From the sequence record NZ_AP019754.1: a stretch of 64,000 bases of DNA; one strand, written 5' to 3'. The translations under genes were made by a program, and so were the position numbers. This document shows, piece by piece, positions 1 through 10,391 of this stretch. The notes beneath the pieces were generated by a model that saw only the letters and a program-made list of their open reading frames with translations, did no database searches and was not told the DNA's origin. This DNA comes from a plasmid. Position 1 is the first letter of the stretch, and each line of letters opens with the position of its first letter.

Positions 1-761
1 CTCAGCGCTTGTTTATCACCCGCCTGCATTTTTGCCATCATTTCAAACCACGCACCGGTCAGCGCTTTGCCGAGGGCGGGGTTATCTTTCAGCGTTTGGG
101 TGTTCACGACCATCATGTCGATGAGTTCGCCGGGCACTTGGGTGGAGCTAAACACTTCGGTGGTTTGTGGCGTCTTTTTGATGACGGACAACTGCGGGTT
201 CCAGGCTACCGCTGCCCGCACATTGCTGGTGCCAAAGGCCGAGACGATATCCGCATCGGAGGTATTAACCACTTTCACATCTTTTTCCTGCAGCCCGGCT
301 TTTTCCAGTCCGCGAACCAGGAGATAGTGCGATACCGAGAGTTCGGGCAGATAAACCGACATACCTTTCAGATCGCTGAGTTTTTTATTCATCCCTTTTA
401 GCACGACGCCGTCGTTGCCATCGGAATAGCTGCCGGTGATGAGTGCTGTCGAATCTACCCCACCTGCCGCCGGGATAGTCAGCGCATCCATGTTGGTCAT
501 GGTGCAGCCGTCAAACTGCCCTGCCGTGTACTGGTTGATGGATTCGATGTAGTCGTTGAGTTGAACAATATTGATTTTGATGCCGTATTTGCTGGCCCAT
601 TTATCAATAATTTTTTCATTGCTGATGGTGCCCCAGGGCATCCAGCCCGCATAGATCGTCCAGCAGATGTTGAATTCTTTTTTAACCGTGGCGAAGGAAG
701 AAAAGCTGATCAGCAAGGTGAGTGACAGCAAAAGCGTGCGGATGAACGGCGTTGTTTTCAT
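1..761 (-). CDS. NitT/TauT-family ABC transporter periplasmic substrate-binding protein, N-terminal 253 codons; the gene continues past the window start. Putative guanidine-binding, given the riboswitch upstream.
   Basis: Minus-strand reading frame begins MKTTPFIRTLLLSLTLLISFSSFATVKKEFNICWTIYAGWMPWG, with a signal peptide and NMT1/THI5-like SBP motifs. The ATG is at 759-761 with an AGAGG Shine-Dalgarno 8 nt upstream. The frame is open to position 1, which is why it is missing from the ORF track. Confidence 0.7.
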   Translation of the reverse strand, partial: MKTTPFIRTLLLSLTLLISFSSFATVKKEFNICWTIYAGWMPWGTISNEKIIDKWASKYGIKINIVQLNDYIESINQYTAGQFDGCTMTNMDALTIPAAGGVDSTALITGSYSDGNDGVVLKGMNKKLSDLKGMSVYLPELSVSHYLLVRGLEKAGLQEKDVKVVNTSDADIVSAFGTSNVRAAVAWNPQLSVIKKTPQTTEVFSSTQVPGELIDMMVVNTQTLKDNPALGKALTGAWFEMMAKMQAGDKQAL

Positions 762-781
762 GGTTAACCTCTGGTTGGCAC

Positions 782-908
782 AAAAAAGGAGCAGCGCGAC
801 ACCTGACGGTGCTGCTGTCTCCCGGGCTTTTGTCCCGCCGTGTAACCTCTCAGAGGTCGCCAGCTCTCGGACCAGACATTCACCTGCGTGAACCGGAACC
901 CTAGCCAG
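782..908 (-). ncRNA. Guanidine-I riboswitch (ykkC/yxkD leader class) with an intrinsic-terminator expression platform.
   Basis: The minus strand reads CTAGGGTTCCGG...CTGGTCCGAGAG...ACGGCGGGACAAAAGCCCGGGAGA. This matches the three conserved ykkC aptamer blocks almost perfectly. A GC hairpin (CAGCAGC...GCTGCTC) and a U6 tract follow, about 20 nt before the SBP start codon. Confidence 0.75.
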
Positions 909-1059
909 CTATTTAATTCAGATTATGTGTTGCGCTGCTTACCGATCAGGTTTTTGCAATTGACGTGCCAGAATTAATAACAATAAAAATCAGTGATTTA
1001 GCATTATCCCTGGTGACGAAGCACCAGAATGATGAGTGACCGAGGGGCATTGCACACAA

Positions 1060-1315
1060 TCAGTGCTGACTGGAACACGAAATATGCTGTGCAGTCCTTA
1101 CATCATAAGCATCAGCGCGGTTTTCTGGGCGACGTTGCAGCGGTAGTGTCCATCCTGACGAGGCGTAACGGTATAACGCCTGACGCAATACCGCTGATGG
1201 CGCGAGGTGCTTTAATCCTGTAGATGTCGCGCGGCCAAAGGGGAGCCACTATTACGCGATAGCCATCCTCGTAGCTTAAGGGAACGCACACGCTTTCAAC
1301 GGTGACCATCCGCAC
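1060..1315 (-). pseudogene. Degraded DUF488 (YeaO-like) gene remnant, frameshifted.
   Basis: ORF 1112-1315 carries ...SYEDGYRVIVAPLWPRD, matching the DUF488 N-terminal core (DGYRVLVDRLWPRG). Similarity then jumps to a different minus frame (LAPSAVLRQAL resembles ITPSTELRKAF). The total length is shorter than an intact roughly 115-aa family member. Confidence 0.35.
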
Positions 1316-1497
1316 TTCTCTTGTGTTGACCCTCCATTAGATGCCCGCACGCGGGTATGGCAGTGGCGTGCTACACAGAGACTGGCTTTGCGTTCTGCCG
1401 GTTCTTTAACCCACCATAAACGTCGCGCGTTTTTTGCAGCAGGGTCATCCGGCCTGCACTACAGTTAACTGACTCAGTAACCAGCAAAAACATAACC

Positions 1498-2157
1498 ATG
1501 TCCTCTTCCCTTCGCTCAAATCTGTTTGCCCGGTTGCGCCTGCTGATCTCTGTGGTGGCAGGTCTCGTCTGCTATGTTTTACTGCCTGAGCATCTGGGGC
1601 AAATGCAGAGACTTTTAATCAGTTGGAACGTGCTGGCATGGCTCTATCTGTGGTTTATCTGGTTTCGCATGTTGCGTACCGCGCCAGATGAGATTAAACG
1701 AATCGCCCAGATGCAGGATCAAAGTGCCGCGCTGGTGCTGGGGCTGGTCATCGTGGCCTGTATGATCAGTATGGTGGCCATCATGAGCGAGCTTCCCACG
1801 TTAAAAAGCCTGACGGGCTCGTCGCGGGCCCTGCATCTGCTTTTGACTGCCATGACGCTCATCGCCTCATGGGCCTTACTGCCCAGCGCATTTGCCATGC
1901 ATTATGCCCATCAGCATTACCTGCTTCGCAGCAACAGTATCACGCCGATGATCTTTCCGGAGAAACCGACGCATCCGGGTTACTGGGATTTTCTCTACTT
2001 CTCTTTCACCATCGCGGTGGCATCCCAGACGGCGGATGTGGCGACGGGCACGACAGAAATGCGCAAGATCGCCTTGTTGCAGTCGGTTATCTCTTTTATT
2101 TTTAATCTGGCGATTCTGGGACTGTCCGTGAATGTGGCAGCCAGTTTGTTAAGTTGA
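1498..2157 (+). CDS. DUF1345-family inner membrane protein.
   Basis: 219 aa with multiple predicted transmembrane helices. The N-terminal pattern is typical of DUF1345. No convincing Shine-Dalgarno, so the start is uncertain. Confidence 0.55.
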   Translation: MSSSLRSNLFARLRLLISVVAGLVCYVLLPEHLGQMQRLLISWNVLAWLYLWFIWFRMLRTAPDEIKRIAQMQDQSAALVLGLVIVACMISMVAIMSELPTLKSLTGSSRALHLLLTAMTLIASWALLPSAFAMHYAHQHYLLRSNSITPMIFPEKPTHPGYWDFLYFSFTIAVASQTADVATGTTEMRKIALLQSVISFIFNLAILGLSVNVAASLLS

Positions 2158-2279
2158 GAGTCTGCCTGCGACGATAGCCAGCAGAGAAGCATATTGACTG
2201 TTACTGGAATTTACCGCTTAAAGCCTGTGCGACGGGAAGCTGCACCCTCTTTGAGAGGGTGCAGAGACAGCGAGAAAAA

Positions 2280-2513
2280 TTAACCGCCCTGCTGCTGTTG
2301 CCCTTGCTGTTGACTGGCCGCTTCTTTCTGTTTCTTTTTGGCCATATGATGTCCAACAGCGCAGCCTGCTGCGGCCCCAGCGACACCGTGATGTTTAACA
2401 TGCCCTGCCACGCCGCCCACGGCCGCGCCCTTTAGACAGCCTTTGGCTTCAGCTTGTGAACTCATCGCCATGAGCAGACCCGCGGTAACAAGAACAACTG
2501 ACAATTTTTTCAT
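2280..2513 (-). CDS. Small secreted glycine-zipper protein (YmgG-like).
   Basis: Signal peptide MKKLSVVLVTAGLLMAMSSQAEA, then a glycine-zipper stretch LKGAAVGGVAGHVKHHGVAGAAAGCAVG. GGAG Shine-Dalgarno upstream of the ATG at 2513. The ORF-track start at 2546 is an N-terminal extension. Confidence 0.6.
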   Translation of the reverse strand: MKKLSVVLVTAGLLMAMSSQAEAKGCLKGAAVGGVAGHVKHHGVAGAAAGCAVGHHMAKKKQKEAASQQQGQQQQGG

Positions 2514-2850
2514 CGAATGACTCCCTGATAAATAGCGAATACGCATTAATGTCTACTGAGCATAGTTAATCAGGTCGCTTCTGCTGGCCGAAGTCAGTAA
2601 ATCTTGAAACCGTTTACCCGCCGTTAAGCGTTTAACGTTCCGGGAGTGATAGCGATATCATAACAGGCGCTTTTTAGCACAATATTCAGTCCTTAACGCT
2701 TATCGATAACGACGGGAAGGAGATGTAAGAGAATATAAAAAACCGCACCTTACTCAGTAAGACGTCCAGCTTTTGAGGTGCAGTTCATTGAGGGGGTTGA
2801 GCATAATTAAAAGGCTAAACAATCAGTTCAGGATGTAAAACCGAGCAGGT

Positions 2851-3114
2851 TCAGGACATATCATCCTGAGTTTCATCGTGTGGGCAAGGTTCGCCGGTGT
2901 CATCACAGGCAGGATTAATGCGCAAACCGCCTGAAGGCTTTCGATGAGCAGCAAGTTTGATGTTCCCCGCACTGCCCGCATTGTTATTTTGCAGCGTAGA
3001 AGCTGACTGTTGTTCATGTACAGATACAGCCAGTGCTGCATTCTGAAAGGTAATCAAGGTCGCGATGGTGAACGCCGTTGTTTGCAGTGCCACTTTTACG
3101 GATAACATTTTCAT
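2851..3114 (-). CDS. Small secreted hypothetical protein.
   Basis: Internal start MKMLSVKVALQTTAFTIATLITFQNAALA is signal-peptide-like. Two Cys in the mature part. No recognisable family. Confidence 0.3.
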   Translation of the reverse strand: MKMLSVKVALQTTAFTIATLITFQNAALAVSVHEQQSASTLQNNNAGSAGNIKLAAHRKPSGGLRINPACDDTGEPCPHDETQDDMS

Positions 3115-3647
3115 AACTTGCCCTTTAGAGATTACGCCAGGAAGGACAGAACGGTTAGCCGTTCTGCTCTGTGCTGTATTCAAACTCAGCAGGGTGAAAA
3201 TAGAATCTTTATATTTCCATTTTAAGACGGACCTGATAAATCAGATTAACCCTTGCCAGCCTGATGCAGAGAGCTCCAGGCGTAGGGGAATAATAAAGAT
3301 TAAAATCATTATCTTATTTACCTCATTCTGCTCGTTGATATTGCAACATCCCCCCTTACTTACACATTTTTCAGATCCTGACTGAGCAGAGCATTAACCA
3401 ATGACGAGCGGATGAGTGGTAACTGGCTGCACTTTCTCTCAAACTGTCTAAACCTGGCATCGATAGCACCATACTCAAAAACCTGTGTAGGCTGCGGCCA
3501 GAAATTTCATGCTTTTAGGGCAATGTATTCTGCGCATAACTTTCATGCCGAAGCGTTTAAGACGCGCTTTGTTTTTCTGTTTTTGTATACGCTGACGTAT
3601 CAATTCAGACCACGCTGCATCGTTAACGACTGCTCAGGAAGCATGAA

Positions 3648-4004
3648 ATGAAAGTACAAAAACTTGATCAACCCGCTTCAATCAAGACGCTGGAATCATG
3701 GGGGACCGTTGAGGGCCTTCCGGGATCGCCCGAGATTGCACTGGCCGGGCTGCAGACGGTGATCCCCGGTCATGAGAATACAGATATGGGCATTTTTGAA
3801 TGTACGGCGGGCAGTTATCGTCGCGGCGTTAAGCAAGCAGAGATGATGCATTTCCTGTCAGGAACGGGTTCCTTCACAGCGGATGGCGAAGCACCACAGC
3901 ATTTCAAACCTGGCGATACCTTGTTCTTTGAAGCGAATACAGAAGGGACATGGGTCATGGAGACCACCATGCGCAAGCTTTATGTGATTTTCGACACCCT
4001 GTAA
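3648..4004 (+). CDS. Cupin-domain protein (cupin_3/DUF861-like).
   Basis: 118 aa with a small-barrel cupin pattern (GTWVMETTMRKLYVIF). GGAAG Shine-Dalgarno upstream. Confidence 0.6.
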   Translation: MKVQKLDQPASIKTLESWGTVEGLPGSPEIALAGLQTVIPGHENTDMGIFECTAGSYRRGVKQAEMMHFLSGTGSFTADGEAPQHFKPGDTLFFEANTEGTWVMETTMRKLYVIFDTL

Positions 4005-4039
4005 AAGTTCGATCACTGATTCATCCCACTGAGGATGAA

Positions 4040-4732
4040 TCAGGACAGCATAAAATCGACGGCATCGTTCGCATGAATGCGCGTTGTATCGAATACCGGT
4101 AGCGCGCTTTGTGCTTCTGAAACCAGCAAACCAATTTCCGTGCAGCCAAATATGACTCCTTCTGCACCTTGTGAAGCCAGTTCCTGTATCACCTCAAGAT
4201 AAAACTGGCGGGAGCCTTCCGTAAATTTCCCCATGCAGAGTTCATCAAAAATGATTTGGTTGATGACGTTACGCTGTTCTGCAGGTGGTACCAGGGTAGC
4301 AATTGAGAATTGTTTATTCAGGCGGCCCAGATAGAAGTCCTGCTCCATGGTATAACGCGTGCCCAGCAAGGCTACTCGGGTCATGCCTTTGCTCGTTATC
4401 GCCCTGCCCGTCGCATCCGCGATATGTAAAAAAGGCAAATGACAGCGAGATTCAATCGCCCCGGCAACCTTGTGCATCGTGTTGGTACATAAGACGATTG
4501 CGTCTGCACCGGCACCCGCCAGACCCACGGCCGCCTCAGCCAGTAGTTCACCAGCCCGATCCCAGTCGCCACTGCGCTGGCAGGCTTCAATTTCATGAAA
4601 ATCCACGCTGTGCAGAAGCAGCTTTGCCGAGTGTAAACCGCCTAATTTGCTTCTGATTCCCTCATTGATCAACCGATAGTAAGGAAGCGTTGATTCCCAG
4701 CTCATGCCGCCTATAAGGCCGATTGTTTTCAT
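4040..4732 (-). CDS. Aspartate/glutamate racemase-family protein (YgeA-like broad-specificity amino-acid racemase).
   Basis: [23 protein letters not shown]... and a CTNTMH motif, typical of the Asp/Glu racemase fold. Strong AAGGAG Shine-Dalgarno before the ATG at 4732. Confidence 0.8.
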
Positions 4733-4908
4733 CACTCTCCTTTGAAATACATCACTGCCAAAGCCTGTCGAGGATAATAAAACTGCGCGTTGCCTGAAAG
4801 AATTATGACGGGTTAGCCGCGTGTTTTCAGGCGTTGCGCTAACCCGTTACCGCCGAGTTCTGGCCGCCGCCGGGCAGCGGAAATCCAATGCCCGGCAGGG
4901 ATCTACCA

Positions 4909-6144
4909 TCACGTTTTATTGCCTTTTTCACTCGCCTGCTGTAATGCCGTGATGACGATGCCCGGCGTTAACACCTGAGGCAGGACAACGGGTTTTCCGC
5001 CGTCAGCAGGATAAACCACATACAGCGGCAAACCGCCACGGCCAAAATCACTGAGTGCCTGCTCAACGTCAGGATTGTACTTTGTTGAGTCAGCAATCAT
5101 ATAAATGGTGTTGGTGCGCGCCATAGCCGTCTTTACTGCCTGGGTTGACAGCGAGGTACGTTCATTAACCTGACAGGTAATGCACCAGGAGGCGGTAAAA
5201 TTCACCAGAACCGGTTTACCCTGGCCTTTTATAGCGTCCACATTTTGGGGAGACCATGCCACCGCAGCCGCTGCCACAACATCCGAAGAATCAGGGGCTG
5301 CCGTCGAGGTTTTCAGCGTAAATAACGGTGGTACCAACAGGATAATTACAACAGCTGTGGCGATGTGCAGAGCCCAGTGCCGCCTTCCCATCATCTGCCG
5401 CTTCTGAGCCAAGCCATACAGCCAGGCGGCAAAACCCAGCAGCAGGCAACAGGTCAGTATCGCTGCCAGCGCCGTCGAGCCAGCCTGCCGTTCCAGCACC
5501 CAGATTAACCAACCCGCCGCACCCAGCATCGGAAACGCCAGGCCATGTTTTAGGGTGATCATCCAGGCACCCGGCGACGGCAGTATTCGGGCAACGACAG
5601 GGAAAAAGGAAATCAAGGTGAAAGGCGCAGCAAAGCCCAACGCCAGAGAAAGAAAGATAATAAAGCTGATAACGGGGGGCTGTACAAGCGCATAACCTAT
5701 GGCGCTGGCCATAAAGGGCGCGCTACACGGGGTAGCAACAACAATCGCCAGCGCCCCCGTTAACGCGGACCCGGTCAATCCCCCCCGCTCGCCCCCGACT
5801 TCGCCGGCCCGCTGAAGTGATAATCCCACCTCGAACAGGCCAAACAGATTAAGTGCGGATGCCAGCATCACCAGAACCAGCAACGCAATCACCAGCGGTG
5901 ACTGCAGTTGAAAACCCCAGCCCACTGATGACCCACCGAATCTCGCCAGCAACAGCAGACCAACCAGTAACATCATGGTGACCACTACGCCAGCCAGAAA
6001 AGCGAGCCCTTCTGCACGAGCCTGTGCGGGCCTGGCGTGATGCCGTATCAGACTCAATGCCTTGAGCGAAATGACCGGGAACACACAGGGCATGAGATTA
6101 AGTATGATGCCGCCCAGAAAAGCGGCGGCGATAGCAGTCAACAT
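4909..6144 (-). CDS. DsbD-like thiol:disulfide reductase with only the membrane beta domain and the C-terminal thioredoxin gamma domain; no alpha domain.
   Basis: Starts directly in a transmembrane helix carrying the LMPCVFPV Cys. Second membrane Cys in VATPCSAPF. C-terminal thioredoxin fold with WCITCQ. No signal peptide or Ig-like N-terminal domain. Confidence 0.75.
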   Translation of the reverse strand: MLTAIAAAFLGGIILNLMPCVFPVISLKALSLIRHHARPAQARAEGLAFLAGVVVTMMLLVGLLLLARFGGSSVGWGFQLQSPLVIALLVLVMLASALNLFGLFEVGLSLQRAGEVGGERGGLTGSALTGALAIVVATPCSAPFMASAIGYALVQPPVISFIIFLSLALGFAAPFTLISFFPVVARILPSPGAWMITLKHGLAFPMLGAAGWLIWVLERQAGSTALAAILTCCLLLGFAAWLYGLAQKRQMMGRRHWALHIATAVVIILLVPPLFTLKTSTAAPDSSDVVAAAAVAWSPQNVDAIKGQGKPVLVNFTASWCITCQVNERTSLSTQAVKTAMARTNTIYMIADSTKYNPDVEQALSDFGRGGLPLYVVYPADGGKPVVLPQVLTPGIVITALQQASEKGNKT

Positions 6145-8323: not shown

Positions 8324-9202
8324 ATGGCAAAAAGACCCGTTACGTTCGATGCTGAAACATTACGAACCTTTGTCACCGGTATTGAGTTGGGAAGTTTTGC
8401 TGCTGCTGCAGAGCGCCTGGGGCGTTCAACATCGGCGGTAAGCGCTCAGCTTAAAAAGCTTGAGCAGCAGGCAGGCGCCGCGCTGGTGCAAAAGTCAGGA
8501 CGACATCTGGTCCTTACTGCCCAGGGGGAAATGATGCTTGCCTATGCGCGCAGGCTGATGAGTCTCAACGACGAAGCTTACCAGGCAGTGAAATCGGTGG
8601 GCATCCGTGGCGAGGTTCGGCTGGGATTGCAGGAAGATTTTGGAGAATCACTTCTCCCCTCTCTTCTTGGGCAATTTTCACGTGCGCACCCCGACGTTCA
8701 GGTCTCCGCGACCGTGACCCGCAACAAGCCTCTGCTGGAAGCAATACGTCACAATGAACTTGATGTTGCCCTGAGCTGGCAGGGTGACGAGAGCACCGCT
8801 TACAGCGAGTCGCTCGGGTCATTACCACTCTGCTGGATTGGCGCAAAAGATTTCGATATCGGCGCATTTATCGATCGGAACCGACCTCTGCCGTTACTGG
8901 TTTTTGAAGCACCCTGTCTGATGCGTAGCGCGGCGACAGCGGCCCTGGACAGCATGAATATCCCCTGGCGCATTGCGTTTACCAGCAGAAGCCTGAGTGG
9001 GATATGGGCGGCCGCGGCGGCCGGGCTCGGAATGACGTTGCGAACACAAACGGGCATGCCGTCATCACTCGCGATATTTGACCAGCAAAAATTGCCAGAT
9101 ACTGGCGCGATTGGCGTTCGTCTGCATCAGTCTGAAAAAAACGTATCAGCCGCAGCAGCCTCGCTTTGCCAGATGATAAAAACGCACTTTCATGGCACAT
9201 AA
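8324..9202 (+). CDS. LysR-family transcriptional regulator, divergent from the CMD-tautomerase-DUF4865 operon.
   Basis: N-terminal HTH (LRTFVTGIELGSFAAAAERLGRSTSAVSAQLKKLE) and a LysR substrate-binding domain. 292 aa. Confidence 0.85.
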   Translation: MAKRPVTFDAETLRTFVTGIELGSFAAAAERLGRSTSAVSAQLKKLEQQAGAALVQKSGRHLVLTAQGEMMLAYARRLMSLNDEAYQAVKSVGIRGEVRLGLQEDFGESLLPSLLGQFSRAHPDVQVSATVTRNKPLLEAIRHNELDVALSWQGDESTAYSESLGSLPLCWIGAKDFDIGAFIDRNRPLPLLVFEAPCLMRSAATAALDSMNIPWRIAFTSRSLSGIWAAAAAGLGMTLRTQTGMPSSLAIFDQQKLPDTGAIGVRLHQSEKNVSAAAASLCQMIKTHFHGT

Positions 9203-9482
9203 GCCAACTACCGCGCCTGAAGAAATCCAGCCAACAGACAGCATCAATCAATGACCGGACAGGCAGGTATTTCTGGCGGTTGAGGCTGAGCACAGGGCTG
9301 TCAGATTGTGGTCGTTTAAACAACGCCCTGCTTTTTGTCCGGCCCGGCTTTGGCACCTTTCCTGCTTGCTGCGCTAATCCTGACGCGGGCACCTGAGTAA
9401 GGCCAATTACAGTATGCTGTAACTAAAATCGTTACAGAAGATACTGTGCCTACACTGTTGTGACATTCATCGCCAATGCTGT

Positions 9483-10391
9483 TTACCCCCGGCTTATCTC
9501 TCCACCATAGCCTTTTACGCTGAGCGTATCACCGTCTGCTTCCACCCACGCGAAGGGCACGTCTAGAGGGCCGTCGAGCATGCCCTTCATGATAAAAAAG
9601 TCGGTGTCCAAAATACGGGCATAGCCTCCGCGATGATCGTGTCCGGCAAAACAGGCGCGCACCCGGTAGCGGGTGAATAAATTCACCAGCGCGTCGGCGT
9701 TCATTAACATATGCGTATTCCCGGGAGCCAGCGGATAATGCCCGAATACCACGATGCTTTCTCGGCACTGCTGTGCCGCCTGTAACTGCTGCTCTATCCA
9801 CACCAACTGTTGCGCGCCCACGGCACCGTTCCAGGGCTGCGCGTGGGGTTGATGCTCATGTTGCAGCCGGGCCAGCAACGCTGCCGCCTGTTGGCGATCG
9901 GTGCCGTTGAGCGCATTGCAGTAAAGACTCATATCATTGCCATCGTAGACAATGAAGCGCCAGCCGTTAAAACGGAAAGCGTAATAGCTCTTGGGTAGGG
10001 GAACCTTACCTTCAAGTCGTGTGGCAATCGTCTGCGCATCATGATTACCCAGCACCACGGCATGGGGATGCTTTAATTCTTGATATACCGGCAATACCGC
10101 AGCATAGCTGTACCAGTCGCGATCGACGAGATCGCCCAGGGTCACCACAAAATCGAGCGGCAGAGCGTTGAGCGCCGTGATGGCCTGGTGCAGTTTTTGT
10201 AGTCCGTTGCGATAGTAAAGATGGTTGTCAACATCCGGTTCGATATCTGCATATTGCGGGTCGGCGATCAAACCAAAACGAACAACGTTGTTCCGCGCAG
10301 CTAAGGGACGCAGCAACGGCGGTTGATACAGCGGTACGACCTCCGCCAGCAGTTCGCGCTGCTGCAGGCTAAGCGAGTGAGGCGTTAACAT
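9483..10391 (-). CDS. Cytoplasmic metallophosphoesterase (calcineurin-like phosphodiesterase).
   Basis: Motifs GDLVDRD and GNHD. No signal peptide. AAGGTGA Shine-Dalgarno. Lies 11 nt downstream of the ABC permease gene. Confidence 0.75.
   Translation of the reverse strand: MLTPHSLSLQQRELLAEVVPLYQPPLLRPLAARNNVVRFGLIADPQYADIEPDVDNHLYYRNGLQKLHQAITALNALPLDFVVTLGDLVDRDWYSYAAVLPVYQELKHPHAVVLGNHDAQTIATRLEGKVPLPKSYYAFRFNGWRFIVYDGNDMSLYCNALNGTDRQQAAALLARLQHEHQPHAQPWNGAVGAQQLVWIEQQLQAAQQCRESIVVFGHYPLAPGNTHMLMNADALVNLFTRYRVRACFAGHDHRGGYARILDTDFFIMKGMLDGPLDVPFAWVEADGDTLSVKGYGGEISRG

Follow-up and report, generated by a model that had tools for sequence, protein, structure and literature searches.

A guanidine-I riboswitch in the leader of a predicted guanidine assimilation operon on a large plasmid of Pantoea ananatis

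The sequence analyzed here (the window) is a stretch of 64,000 nt from a large plasmid of Pantoea ananatis (NZ_AP019754.1). All features described are on the minus strand. A transporter gene runs off the start of the window, and its 5' leader very probably contains a guanidine-I riboswitch that stands at the head of a guanidine assimilation operon; the probability of this reading is put at roughly 0.9. The identity of the aptamer, its covariation, its overlap with a terminator, the identities of the genes and their operon context were computed from the sequences. Ligand binding, ON-switching, the substrate of the transporter and the chemistry of the enzymes are assigned by analogy with published homologues.

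The whole window was scanned with Infernal against Rfam 15, with the gathering scores as cut-offs. Only RF00442 exceeds its gathering score anywhere in the 64 kb; its match at positions 817–915 has a score of 93.0 bits (gathering score 63; expectation value, E, of 1.6e-15 for the whole window) and covers the complete model, positions 1–107 of 107. A permissive scan of positions 700–1100 shows no other family above 17 bits. The conserved sequence blocks are CUAGGGUUCCGG (positions 904–893), CUGGUCCGAGAG (875–864) and ACGGCGGGACAAAAGCCCGGGAGA (841–818). A preliminary description of this DNA had placed three ykkC blocks on the minus strand between positions 818 and 906, and had proposed a covariance search of positions 780–910 with RF00442. 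The three blocks are where it put them, the search gives the strong minus-strand match that it expected, and the Rfam match is slightly longer, to position 915. The match to the covariance model, together with the comparative data below, confirms that positions 817–915 encode a guanidine-I (ykkC subtype 1) aptamer.

The comparison set consists of 80 genomic loci, each from a different species and with a gene for a relative of the downstream protein, and takes in Pantoea, Klebsiella, Raoultella, Enterobacter, Pectobacterium, Brenneria, Pseudomonas and several Burkholderiales. Thirty-two orthologous leaders were aligned (alignment A1), and a covariance model was made from them. The Rfam consensus structure projected on this alignment has standard pairs in 99.2% of cells, as opposed to only 25–53% in a control where the 3' partners were slid by 1–3 columns. 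Compensatory double changes are present in seven pairs, all within P1 and P1b; P2 and P3 are invariant across the 32 leaders and are uninformative on covariation. A regular expression for the aptamer overlooked 14 of the 80 loci, and the covariance model recovered all of these. With this model every one of the 80 loci is seen to have the aptamer immediately before the orthologous gene.

The nucleotides of the ligand pocket were placed by sequence register on the numbering of the Dickeya dadantii ykkC RNA (Dda_ykkC), where a crystal structure at 2.3 Å and mutagenesis define the guanidinium pocket (Battaglia, Price & Ke 2017, RNA 23:578; PMC5340920). G866 and A865 correspond to the G37/A38 bulge of Dda_ykkC, G839 to G67 (the pocket floor, with a cation-pi contact), G838 to G68 (a phosphate contact) and G821 to G85, which makes bidentate hydrogen bonds. 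G822 corresponds to G84 and has a long-range pair with C842; A820 and G819 correspond to A86 and G87, and an A-rich loop (A-loop) is at positions 833–828. All of the mapped pocket nucleotides are present in the window and are invariant in the 32 leaders. Guanidinium binding by the window aptamer is predicted from this correspondence with the Dickeya RNA.

The aptamer runs into a predicted intrinsic terminator. ViennaRNA models display a hairpin at positions 823–787 with 14 pairs and a delta G of about -22 kcal/mol. It consists of the 5' arm GGGAG-A-CAGC-A-GCACC (positions 823–808), the loop GUCA and the 3' arm GGUGU-CGC-GCUG-CUCCU (803–787), whose last residues, CUCCU (791–787), abut the U tract. 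The 5' arm opens with the aptamer tail GGGAG (823–819; G93–G97), i.e., with the bottom of P3 and the ligand-contacting nucleotides. Because GGGAG is common to the aptamer and the terminator, the bound aptamer and the complete terminator are mutually exclusive at the sequence level. The same hairpin is recovered by RNAalifold in 31 Enterobacterales leaders (alignment A2), where it is 95.4% paired, and most Enterobacterales orthologues have a U tract of 4–9 residues at the corresponding site. A consensus promoter and terminator scanner reports nothing in positions 700–1500, a result that is uninformative in that the scanner allows no stem bulges and does not cover sigma-54 promoters; it misses the hairpin because the stem has bulges. 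Terminator competition was proposed as the mechanism of the Dickeya dadantii homologue (PMC5340920), and the guanidine-I class is described as a transcriptional ON switch (2025 review, PMC12186494). The GC-rich hairpin followed by U6 that had been noted previously is thus found at positions 823–787 and 787–782, and the earlier suggestion of read-through with bound ligand agrees with the reuse of the aptamer GGGAG in the terminator 5' arm, as in the mechanism proposed for Dickeya. A terminator-type ON expression platform after the aptamer is supported by the sequence comparison.

Further sequence motifs surround the platform. Immediately after the U tract, the sequence GUGCCAA (positions 775–781) is kept in most leaders of Enterobacteriaceae and Erwiniaceae in alignment A2, and is not found in Pectobacterium. 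Many Pseudomonas orthologues (leaders of loci L044–L080, e.g., L058, positions 9750–9933, and L060, positions 9751–9935) have a platform hairpin that shares GGGAG and has no U tract. The 3' arm in those leaders, CUCCUG, resembles an anti-Shine-Dalgarno sequence, and the Pseudomonas platform may operate in a different mode, via translation or Rho. In the window, the P2 5' strand GACCUCUG (858–851) is perfectly complementary to the Shine-Dalgarno region CAGAGGUU (773–766), which is a near-duplicate of the P2 3' strand. The P2 strand and the Shine-Dalgarno region co-vary in one locus (L001, CUCG/CGAG). This complementarity could provide added translational control, or could be a by-product of the invariant CCUC/GAGG helix of P2.

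The gene downstream begins with an ATG at positions 761–759, 20 nt past the U tract, as the preliminary description had estimated; this equals the annotated start of the coding sequence of WP_014333191.1 in plasmid pPANA10. The open reading frame extends off the start of the window and 253 codons are visible. The 253 aa fragment has a score of 398.2 bits against the NCBIfam equivalog TIGR03427 (cut-off 333.9) and 42.5 bits against Pfam NMT1, in agreement with the NMT1/THI5-like substrate-binding protein (SBP) recognized previously. A full-length orthologue from Pantoea allii reaches 534 bits with TIGR03427. This family represents the SBP of a urea-carboxylase-associated ATP-binding cassette (ABC) system and has the NCBIfam name "putative urea ABC transporter substrate-binding protein". 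By eye, the N-terminus, MKTTPFIRTLLLSLTLLISFSSFA/TVKK, has the n, h and c parts of a Sec signal peptide; the match to the family hidden Markov model begins at residue 27. The protein is 89–91% identical to its Raoultella and Klebsiella orthologues. Among 81 orthologues with only 64–94% overall identity, residues W40, W43, D117, W187 and D215 do not vary, and this set of aromatic and acidic residues would fit a cation-pi/carboxylate guanidinium site.

A comparable protein has been analyzed in Synechocystis sp. PCC 6803. GimA binds guanidine with a dissociation constant of ~97 nM, gimA and gimB mutants fail at low guanidine, and the proposed guanidinium site consists of W59, W62, F205, D135 and D233 (PMC12704784). 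GimABC is likewise an SBP-dependent ABC system of the NitT/TauT type, and it is linked in the genome both with nitrogen control and with a guanidine-I riboswitch (PMC12704784). Of the residues at the proposed GimA site, two are Trp, one is another aromatic and two are Asp; residues of these kinds are also invariant in the Pantoea SBP when placed by numbering offset. GimABC differs in that it is coupled to the guanidine hydrolase GdmH and not to a carboxylase pathway, is controlled by NtcA and not by sigma-54/NtrC, and has its riboswitch before gdmH and not before the SBP gene. The preliminary description took the truncated transporter for a guanidine-inducible uptake system and not an importer of sulfonate, nitrate or a thiamine precursor. 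Assignment to the TIGR03427 system and the import of guanidine by the homologous GimABC favor that view, and a guanidine-inducible guanidine importer is well supported by homology.

The genes that follow the SBP gene were read in pPANA10 from P. ananatis LMG 5342 (locus L081), which was used for the operon beyond window position 1. The first 6 kb of the window are 99.1% identical to pPANA10 and to other P. ananatis plasmids of 270–340 kb. A megablast search of complete E. coli genomes returned no match, so that an E. coli origin of the locus is rejected. The gene order in pPANA10 after the SBP gene is permease, ATPase, UAAP1, UAAP2 and uca (urea/guanidine carboxylase). This layout of permease, ATPase, UAAP1, UAAP2 and carboxylase is present in about 78 of the 80 related loci, essentially every untruncated one, and family scans of the orthologous genes confirm the gene identities. 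Permease and ATPase genes, and possibly carboxylase genes, had been predicted to lie past the start of the window, and an inspection of the genes upstream of position 1 had been proposed; the transport and carboxylase genes are there as predicted in pPANA10 and in the relatives, the reading being made in the 99.1%-identical plasmid and not in the plasmid's own contig. The 112 nt gap between UAAP2 and uca contains a guanidine-II (mini-ykkC) riboswitch (RF01068, 40.4 bits with a gathering score of 32, L081 positions 8621–8670, minus strand), ~3.3 kb past the start of the window, so that two distinct guanidine riboswitches follow one another in the operon. Homologues of UAAP1 and UAAP2 have been characterized as the carboxyguanidine deiminase CgdAB, and guanidine and carboxyguanidine are the substrates of the co-transcribed enzymes (PMC12186494).

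Ten Pseudomonas loci have a second guanidine-I riboswitch, located ~1.4 kb farther upstream and accompanied by a separate sigma-54-like element (L047, positions 8397–8523 and 8593–9651, L051, L053, L056, L057, L059, L061, L066, L070 and L071). The upstream riboswitch precedes a second NMT1-type SBP paralogue in L047, the one locus checked. A tandem arrangement of two SBP genes, each gated by a riboswitch, is suggested for these Pseudomonas loci.

The arrangement of riboswitch and operon is already known; it has been described in Dickeya, Raoultella, Klebsiella and Erwinia and is the most typical proteobacterial context of this class. The Dickeya dadantii riboswitch is of the same class and subtype and from the same order, Enterobacterales. 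It has identical pocket nucleotides, its terminator reuses the last residues of P3, and the same six genes follow. It differs in being from another genus and in its P1b and P2 loop sequences; the Pantoea locus is on a plasmid, and the Pantoea RNA is known from sequence. Raoultella terrigena, Klebsiella michiganensis and Erwinia rhapontici grow on guanidine, according to Sinn et al. 2021 as summarized in PMC12186494. In the operons of these species, the importer and carboxyguanidine deaminase genes lie behind a guanidine-I riboswitch and the carboxylase gene behind one of the guanidine-II class, as in pPANA10, but an allophanate hydrolase gene follows the carboxylase gene, which is not the case at the P. 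ananatis plasmid locus.

A putative promoter lies upstream of the aptamer. The -24/-12 element CTGGCACGTCAATTGCA is the sole exact match to TGGCAC-N5-TTGCW in the 64 kb window, although a single match proves little alone, and it agrees with YTGGCACGrNNNTTGCW at all but one specified position. A -24/-12 element is found 59–96 nt upstream of 85 of the 90 aptamers in the related loci. This is a density of 8.6 per kb vs. a background of 0.045 per kb, or an enrichment of ~190-fold, and the five aptamers without a full element still keep GG-N10-GC. Based on the spacing rule, transcription is predicted to start near position 944. The palindrome AGCACTGATTGTGTGCA (GCAC-N7-GTGC), farther upstream, is a candidate NtrC-type site. 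Eighteen other loci also have the palindrome 97–100 nt upstream of the -24 element, with AGCACCAGCGTGGTGCA as a near-consensus example; within the window alone it is not significant, with 2 matches vs. 1.6 expected. In the interval that separates the NtrC-like site from the sigma-54 element there is a perfect inverted repeat, CTGGTG-N6-CACCAG, at positions 1010–1027.

RNA-seq data from Burkholderia cenocepacia H111 show that an orthologous SBP/UAAP/carboxylase cluster is NtrC/sigma-54-dependent under nitrogen limitation (PMC5491218). This "urea carboxylase-related" cluster agrees with the -24/-12 element found here, but it was not tied to guanidine or to a riboswitch in that study (PMC5491218). 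The putative sigma-54 control is therefore not new in kind; the guanidine review (PMC12186494) makes no mention of sigma-54/NtrC control. Initiation under nitrogen starvation with elongation only in the presence of guanidine is likely, and would parallel the combination of NtcA and a riboswitch in Synechocystis (PMC12704784).

The proposed mechanism of control is as follows. Transcription most likely starts near position 944 from the sigma-54 promoter at 971–955, which would be activated under nitrogen limitation. Without guanidine, GGGAG (823–819) would pair with CUCCU (791–787) and complete the terminator against U6, so that RNA polymerase would stop before the ATG at 761. With guanidinium, G821, G822, A820 and G819 would be locked into the P3 pocket, which would keep the terminator base from forming, and read-through would occur. 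Read-through would express the periplasmic binding protein, then the permease, the ATPase and the two UAAP proteins, and the guanidine-II riboswitch would then gate the guanidine carboxylase, which is annotated as a "urea" carboxylase. The net effect would be a guanidine-induced high-affinity uptake and the conversion of guanidine to ammonium.

Several points weigh against this reading of the locus. Ligand binding, termination and transport are all drawn from homologues of this RNA and protein. The remainder of the operon is outside the window and is read from the 99.1%-identical pPANA10. The minimum free energy (MFE) structure of the full leader calculated by ViennaRNA does not contain the native aptamer fold, as is expected for an RNA stabilized by tertiary structure. 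Tertiary contacts, which are outside the energy model, hold the native aptamer together, and the ViennaRNA energies therefore do not allow a ranking of the ON state relative to the OFF state. The correspondence of W40, W43, W187, D117 and D215 to W59, W62, F205, D135 and D233 of GimA is by a constant numbering offset of 18–19 and not by alignment. There is no allophanate hydrolase gene after the carboxylase gene in the P. ananatis plasmid locus (L081 positions 1–5000), nor is one detected in the 64 kb window (tblastn, E<1e-20), so that the last step of the pathway is encoded elsewhere or is missing; the gene is also absent from about half of the related loci. The literature searched has no record of growth of P. 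ananatis on guanidine.

Other explanations of the locus were considered. The RNA might be a ykkC subtype-2 variant that senses guanosine tetraphosphate (ppGpp), phosphoribosyl pyrophosphate (PRPP), a nucleoside diphosphate or a similar compound and not guanidine. Subtype-2 RNAs have the same overall ykkC fold and similarity of the blocks alone does not discriminate between the subtypes (PMC5340920), but the positions that are pyrimidines in subtype 2 (Dda G67 and A38) are the purines G839 and A865 in the window, as in subtype 1, and G822 and G821 are both G. RF00442 alone scores; in the permissive scan of 700–1100 no ykkC subtype-2 family (ppGpp, PRPP and the like) is found, and there is no other riboswitch family at E≤10. 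The genes are for transport and a carboxylase and not for purine or amino-acid metabolism, and a subtype-2 RNA is extremely improbable. A second possibility is that the riboswitch senses guanidine and the ABC system carries urea, methylguanidine or another small cation, or exports guanidine. ABC systems supplied by a periplasmic binding protein work as importers, as is well established, and this argues against an exporter, although the transporters were initially taken for guanidinium pumps by Battaglia et al. 2017 (PMC5340920). A substrate other than guanidine is implied by the urea name that NCBIfam gives to the SBP. No assay of a proteobacterial member of the SBP family was found in the literature searched, and the family is without a solved structure, the nearest PDB sequences being TauA, SsuA and NrtA-like proteins with E of 4e-8 or worse. 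The homologous GimA, however, binds guanidine in the nanomolar range given above, and cells require it to grow on trace guanidine (PMC12704784), the five invariant residues fit a cation-pi/carboxylate site, and the action of the co-transcribed enzymes is on guanidine and carboxyguanidine (PMC12186494). Transport of another substrate, or export, is considered very unlikely.

Control of the operon might also be mainly translational or post-transcriptional, by sequestration of the Shine-Dalgarno sequence or by an effect on mRNA stability via a helix that the 5' leader forms with the 3' arm of the terminator, and not by termination. The P2 5' strand does pair with the Shine-Dalgarno region in the MFE structure, many Pseudomonas orthologues have the platform hairpin with no U tract, and a block in the 5' leader is able to pair with the terminator 3' arm (see below). 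The canonical hairpin with U6 directly after the aptamer, conserved in Enterobacterales, nevertheless points to termination, and guanidine-I riboswitches are described as acting by disruption of a terminator (PMC5340920; 2025 review, PMC12186494). In addition, the complementarity of P2 to the Shine-Dalgarno region is partly forced, as P2 is an invariant CCUC/GAGG and Shine-Dalgarno sequences are GGAG-like. Mainly non-terminator control is about as improbable as a transporter for another substrate, and the guanidine-I riboswitch acting by termination is the preferred interpretation.

A possible long-range helix was also found in the leader. The block AGCAGCGCAACAC, at about +6 to +18 of the predicted transcript, is the best-conserved part of the otherwise variable spacer between promoter and aptamer. 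Its residues A939–C932 (AGCAGCGC) can pair with U790–G797 of the terminator 3' arm, and A930–C927 with U799–G802. The duplex of leader block and 3' arm has a delta G of -22.9 kcal/mol vs. -21.6 kcal/mol for the terminator's own arms. The unconstrained MFE structure of positions 944–782 contains this pairing and not the terminator, and in a fold that mimics the bound state the helix adds 11.5 kcal/mol. The same complementarity is formed by different sequences elsewhere, i.e., by CGGGACAGC in Pectobacterium, CAGGGCAGCA in Brenneria and CGCGGCACC and GCAGGAG in Pseudomonas; in a metagenome-assembled genome of Rhizobacter the duplex has ~21 pairs, 14 of them contiguous. Across the aligned Enterobacterales leaders, pairing of the helix is 91.7% vs. 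21–55% when slid, with two compensatory pairs. A change of U to C in the 3' arm breaks a terminator pair in 16 of the 31 sequences, the A in the aptamer being invariant, and the 5' block changes from A to G in step. Permutation of the complementarity by clade swaps gives p ~1e-4. A test of the longest perfect run in 18 clade representatives gives p<0.05 in nine (p=0.024 for the window), with a Fisher combined p of 4e-8. Mononucleotide-shuffle z-scores for the duplex (55 of 81 below -2) were discounted because they are inflated by the AT-rich leader.

There is also evidence against this helix. Relative to random genomic 46-mers the gain is only modest, with a median control fraction of 0.16 and 0.06 for the window. 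No signal is seen in the ten upstream copies of the riboswitch in Pseudomonas, the compensatory changes represent perhaps two or three independent events, and RNAalifold picks the terminator instead when applied to the Enterobacterales leaders. From these comparisons, the chance that the complementarity represents a selected RNA helix is about even. It is more doubtful whether the 5' block is a long-range antiterminator, which would capture the 3' arm once guanidine locks GGGAG into the aptamer; this role is put forward tentatively. If it is true, the leader together with the sigma-54/NtrC promoter would form a two-input gate, which responds to nitrogen starvation and guanidine combined, and a three-strand switch. 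A long-range antiterminator helix was not found described for guanidine-I riboswitches in a literature search that was without most subscription-journal papers. The positions of all features are listed in Table 1.

Table 1. Features of the riboswitch leader and first operon gene in the 64,000 nt window of NZ_AP019754.1.
Feature	Positions	Strand	Basis or remark
Guanidine-I (ykkC subtype 1) aptamer	817–915	-	RF00442; covariation in 32 leaders
P1	909–904/864–859	-	Rfam consensus structure
P1a	901–900/870–869	-	Rfam consensus structure
P1b	896–888/883–872	-	Rfam consensus structure
P2	858–853/849–844	-	Rfam consensus structure
P3	842, 836–834/826–824, 822	-	Rfam consensus structure
Span of predicted ligand-pocket and key tertiary nucleotides	819–866	-	Register mapping to Dda_ykkC (PMC5340920)
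Predicted intrinsic terminator hairpin	787–823	-	ViennaRNA folds; RNAalifold
U6 tract of terminator	782–787	-	Direct reading
Shine-Dalgarno sequence AGAGG	768–772	-	Direct reading; 6 nt before ATG
SBP gene of probable guanidine ABC importer, 5' part (253 of 352 codons), first operon gene	1–761	-	TIGR03427, NMT1
Putative Sec signal peptide, codons 1–24	761–690	-	By eye
Sigma-54-type -24/-12 element CTGGCACGTCAATTGCA	955–971	-	GG 969–968, GC 957–956; predicted start near 944
NtrC-type enhancer-like palindrome AGCACTGATTGTGTGCA (GCAC-N7-GTGC)	1051–1067	-	Centred ~115 nt upstream of predicted start
Conserved 5' leader block AGCAGCGCAACAC	927–939	-	Complementary to terminator 3' arm (802–790); tentative antiterminator helper

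The P. ananatis locus leaves knowledge of the guanidine riboswitches themselves unchanged; the helix of leader block and 3' arm, if true, would add detail on how the ON switch commits to read-through. The findings are of significance for annotation, in that the genes listed in RefSeq as a "putative urea ABC transporter" SBP and a "urea carboxylase" are best read as parts of a guanidine-inducible operon for guanidine uptake and assimilation. Plants have been reported to make free guanidine (PMC11018352). P. ananatis is plant-associated, and the plasmid may allow it to scavenge a plant-derived nitrogen source.

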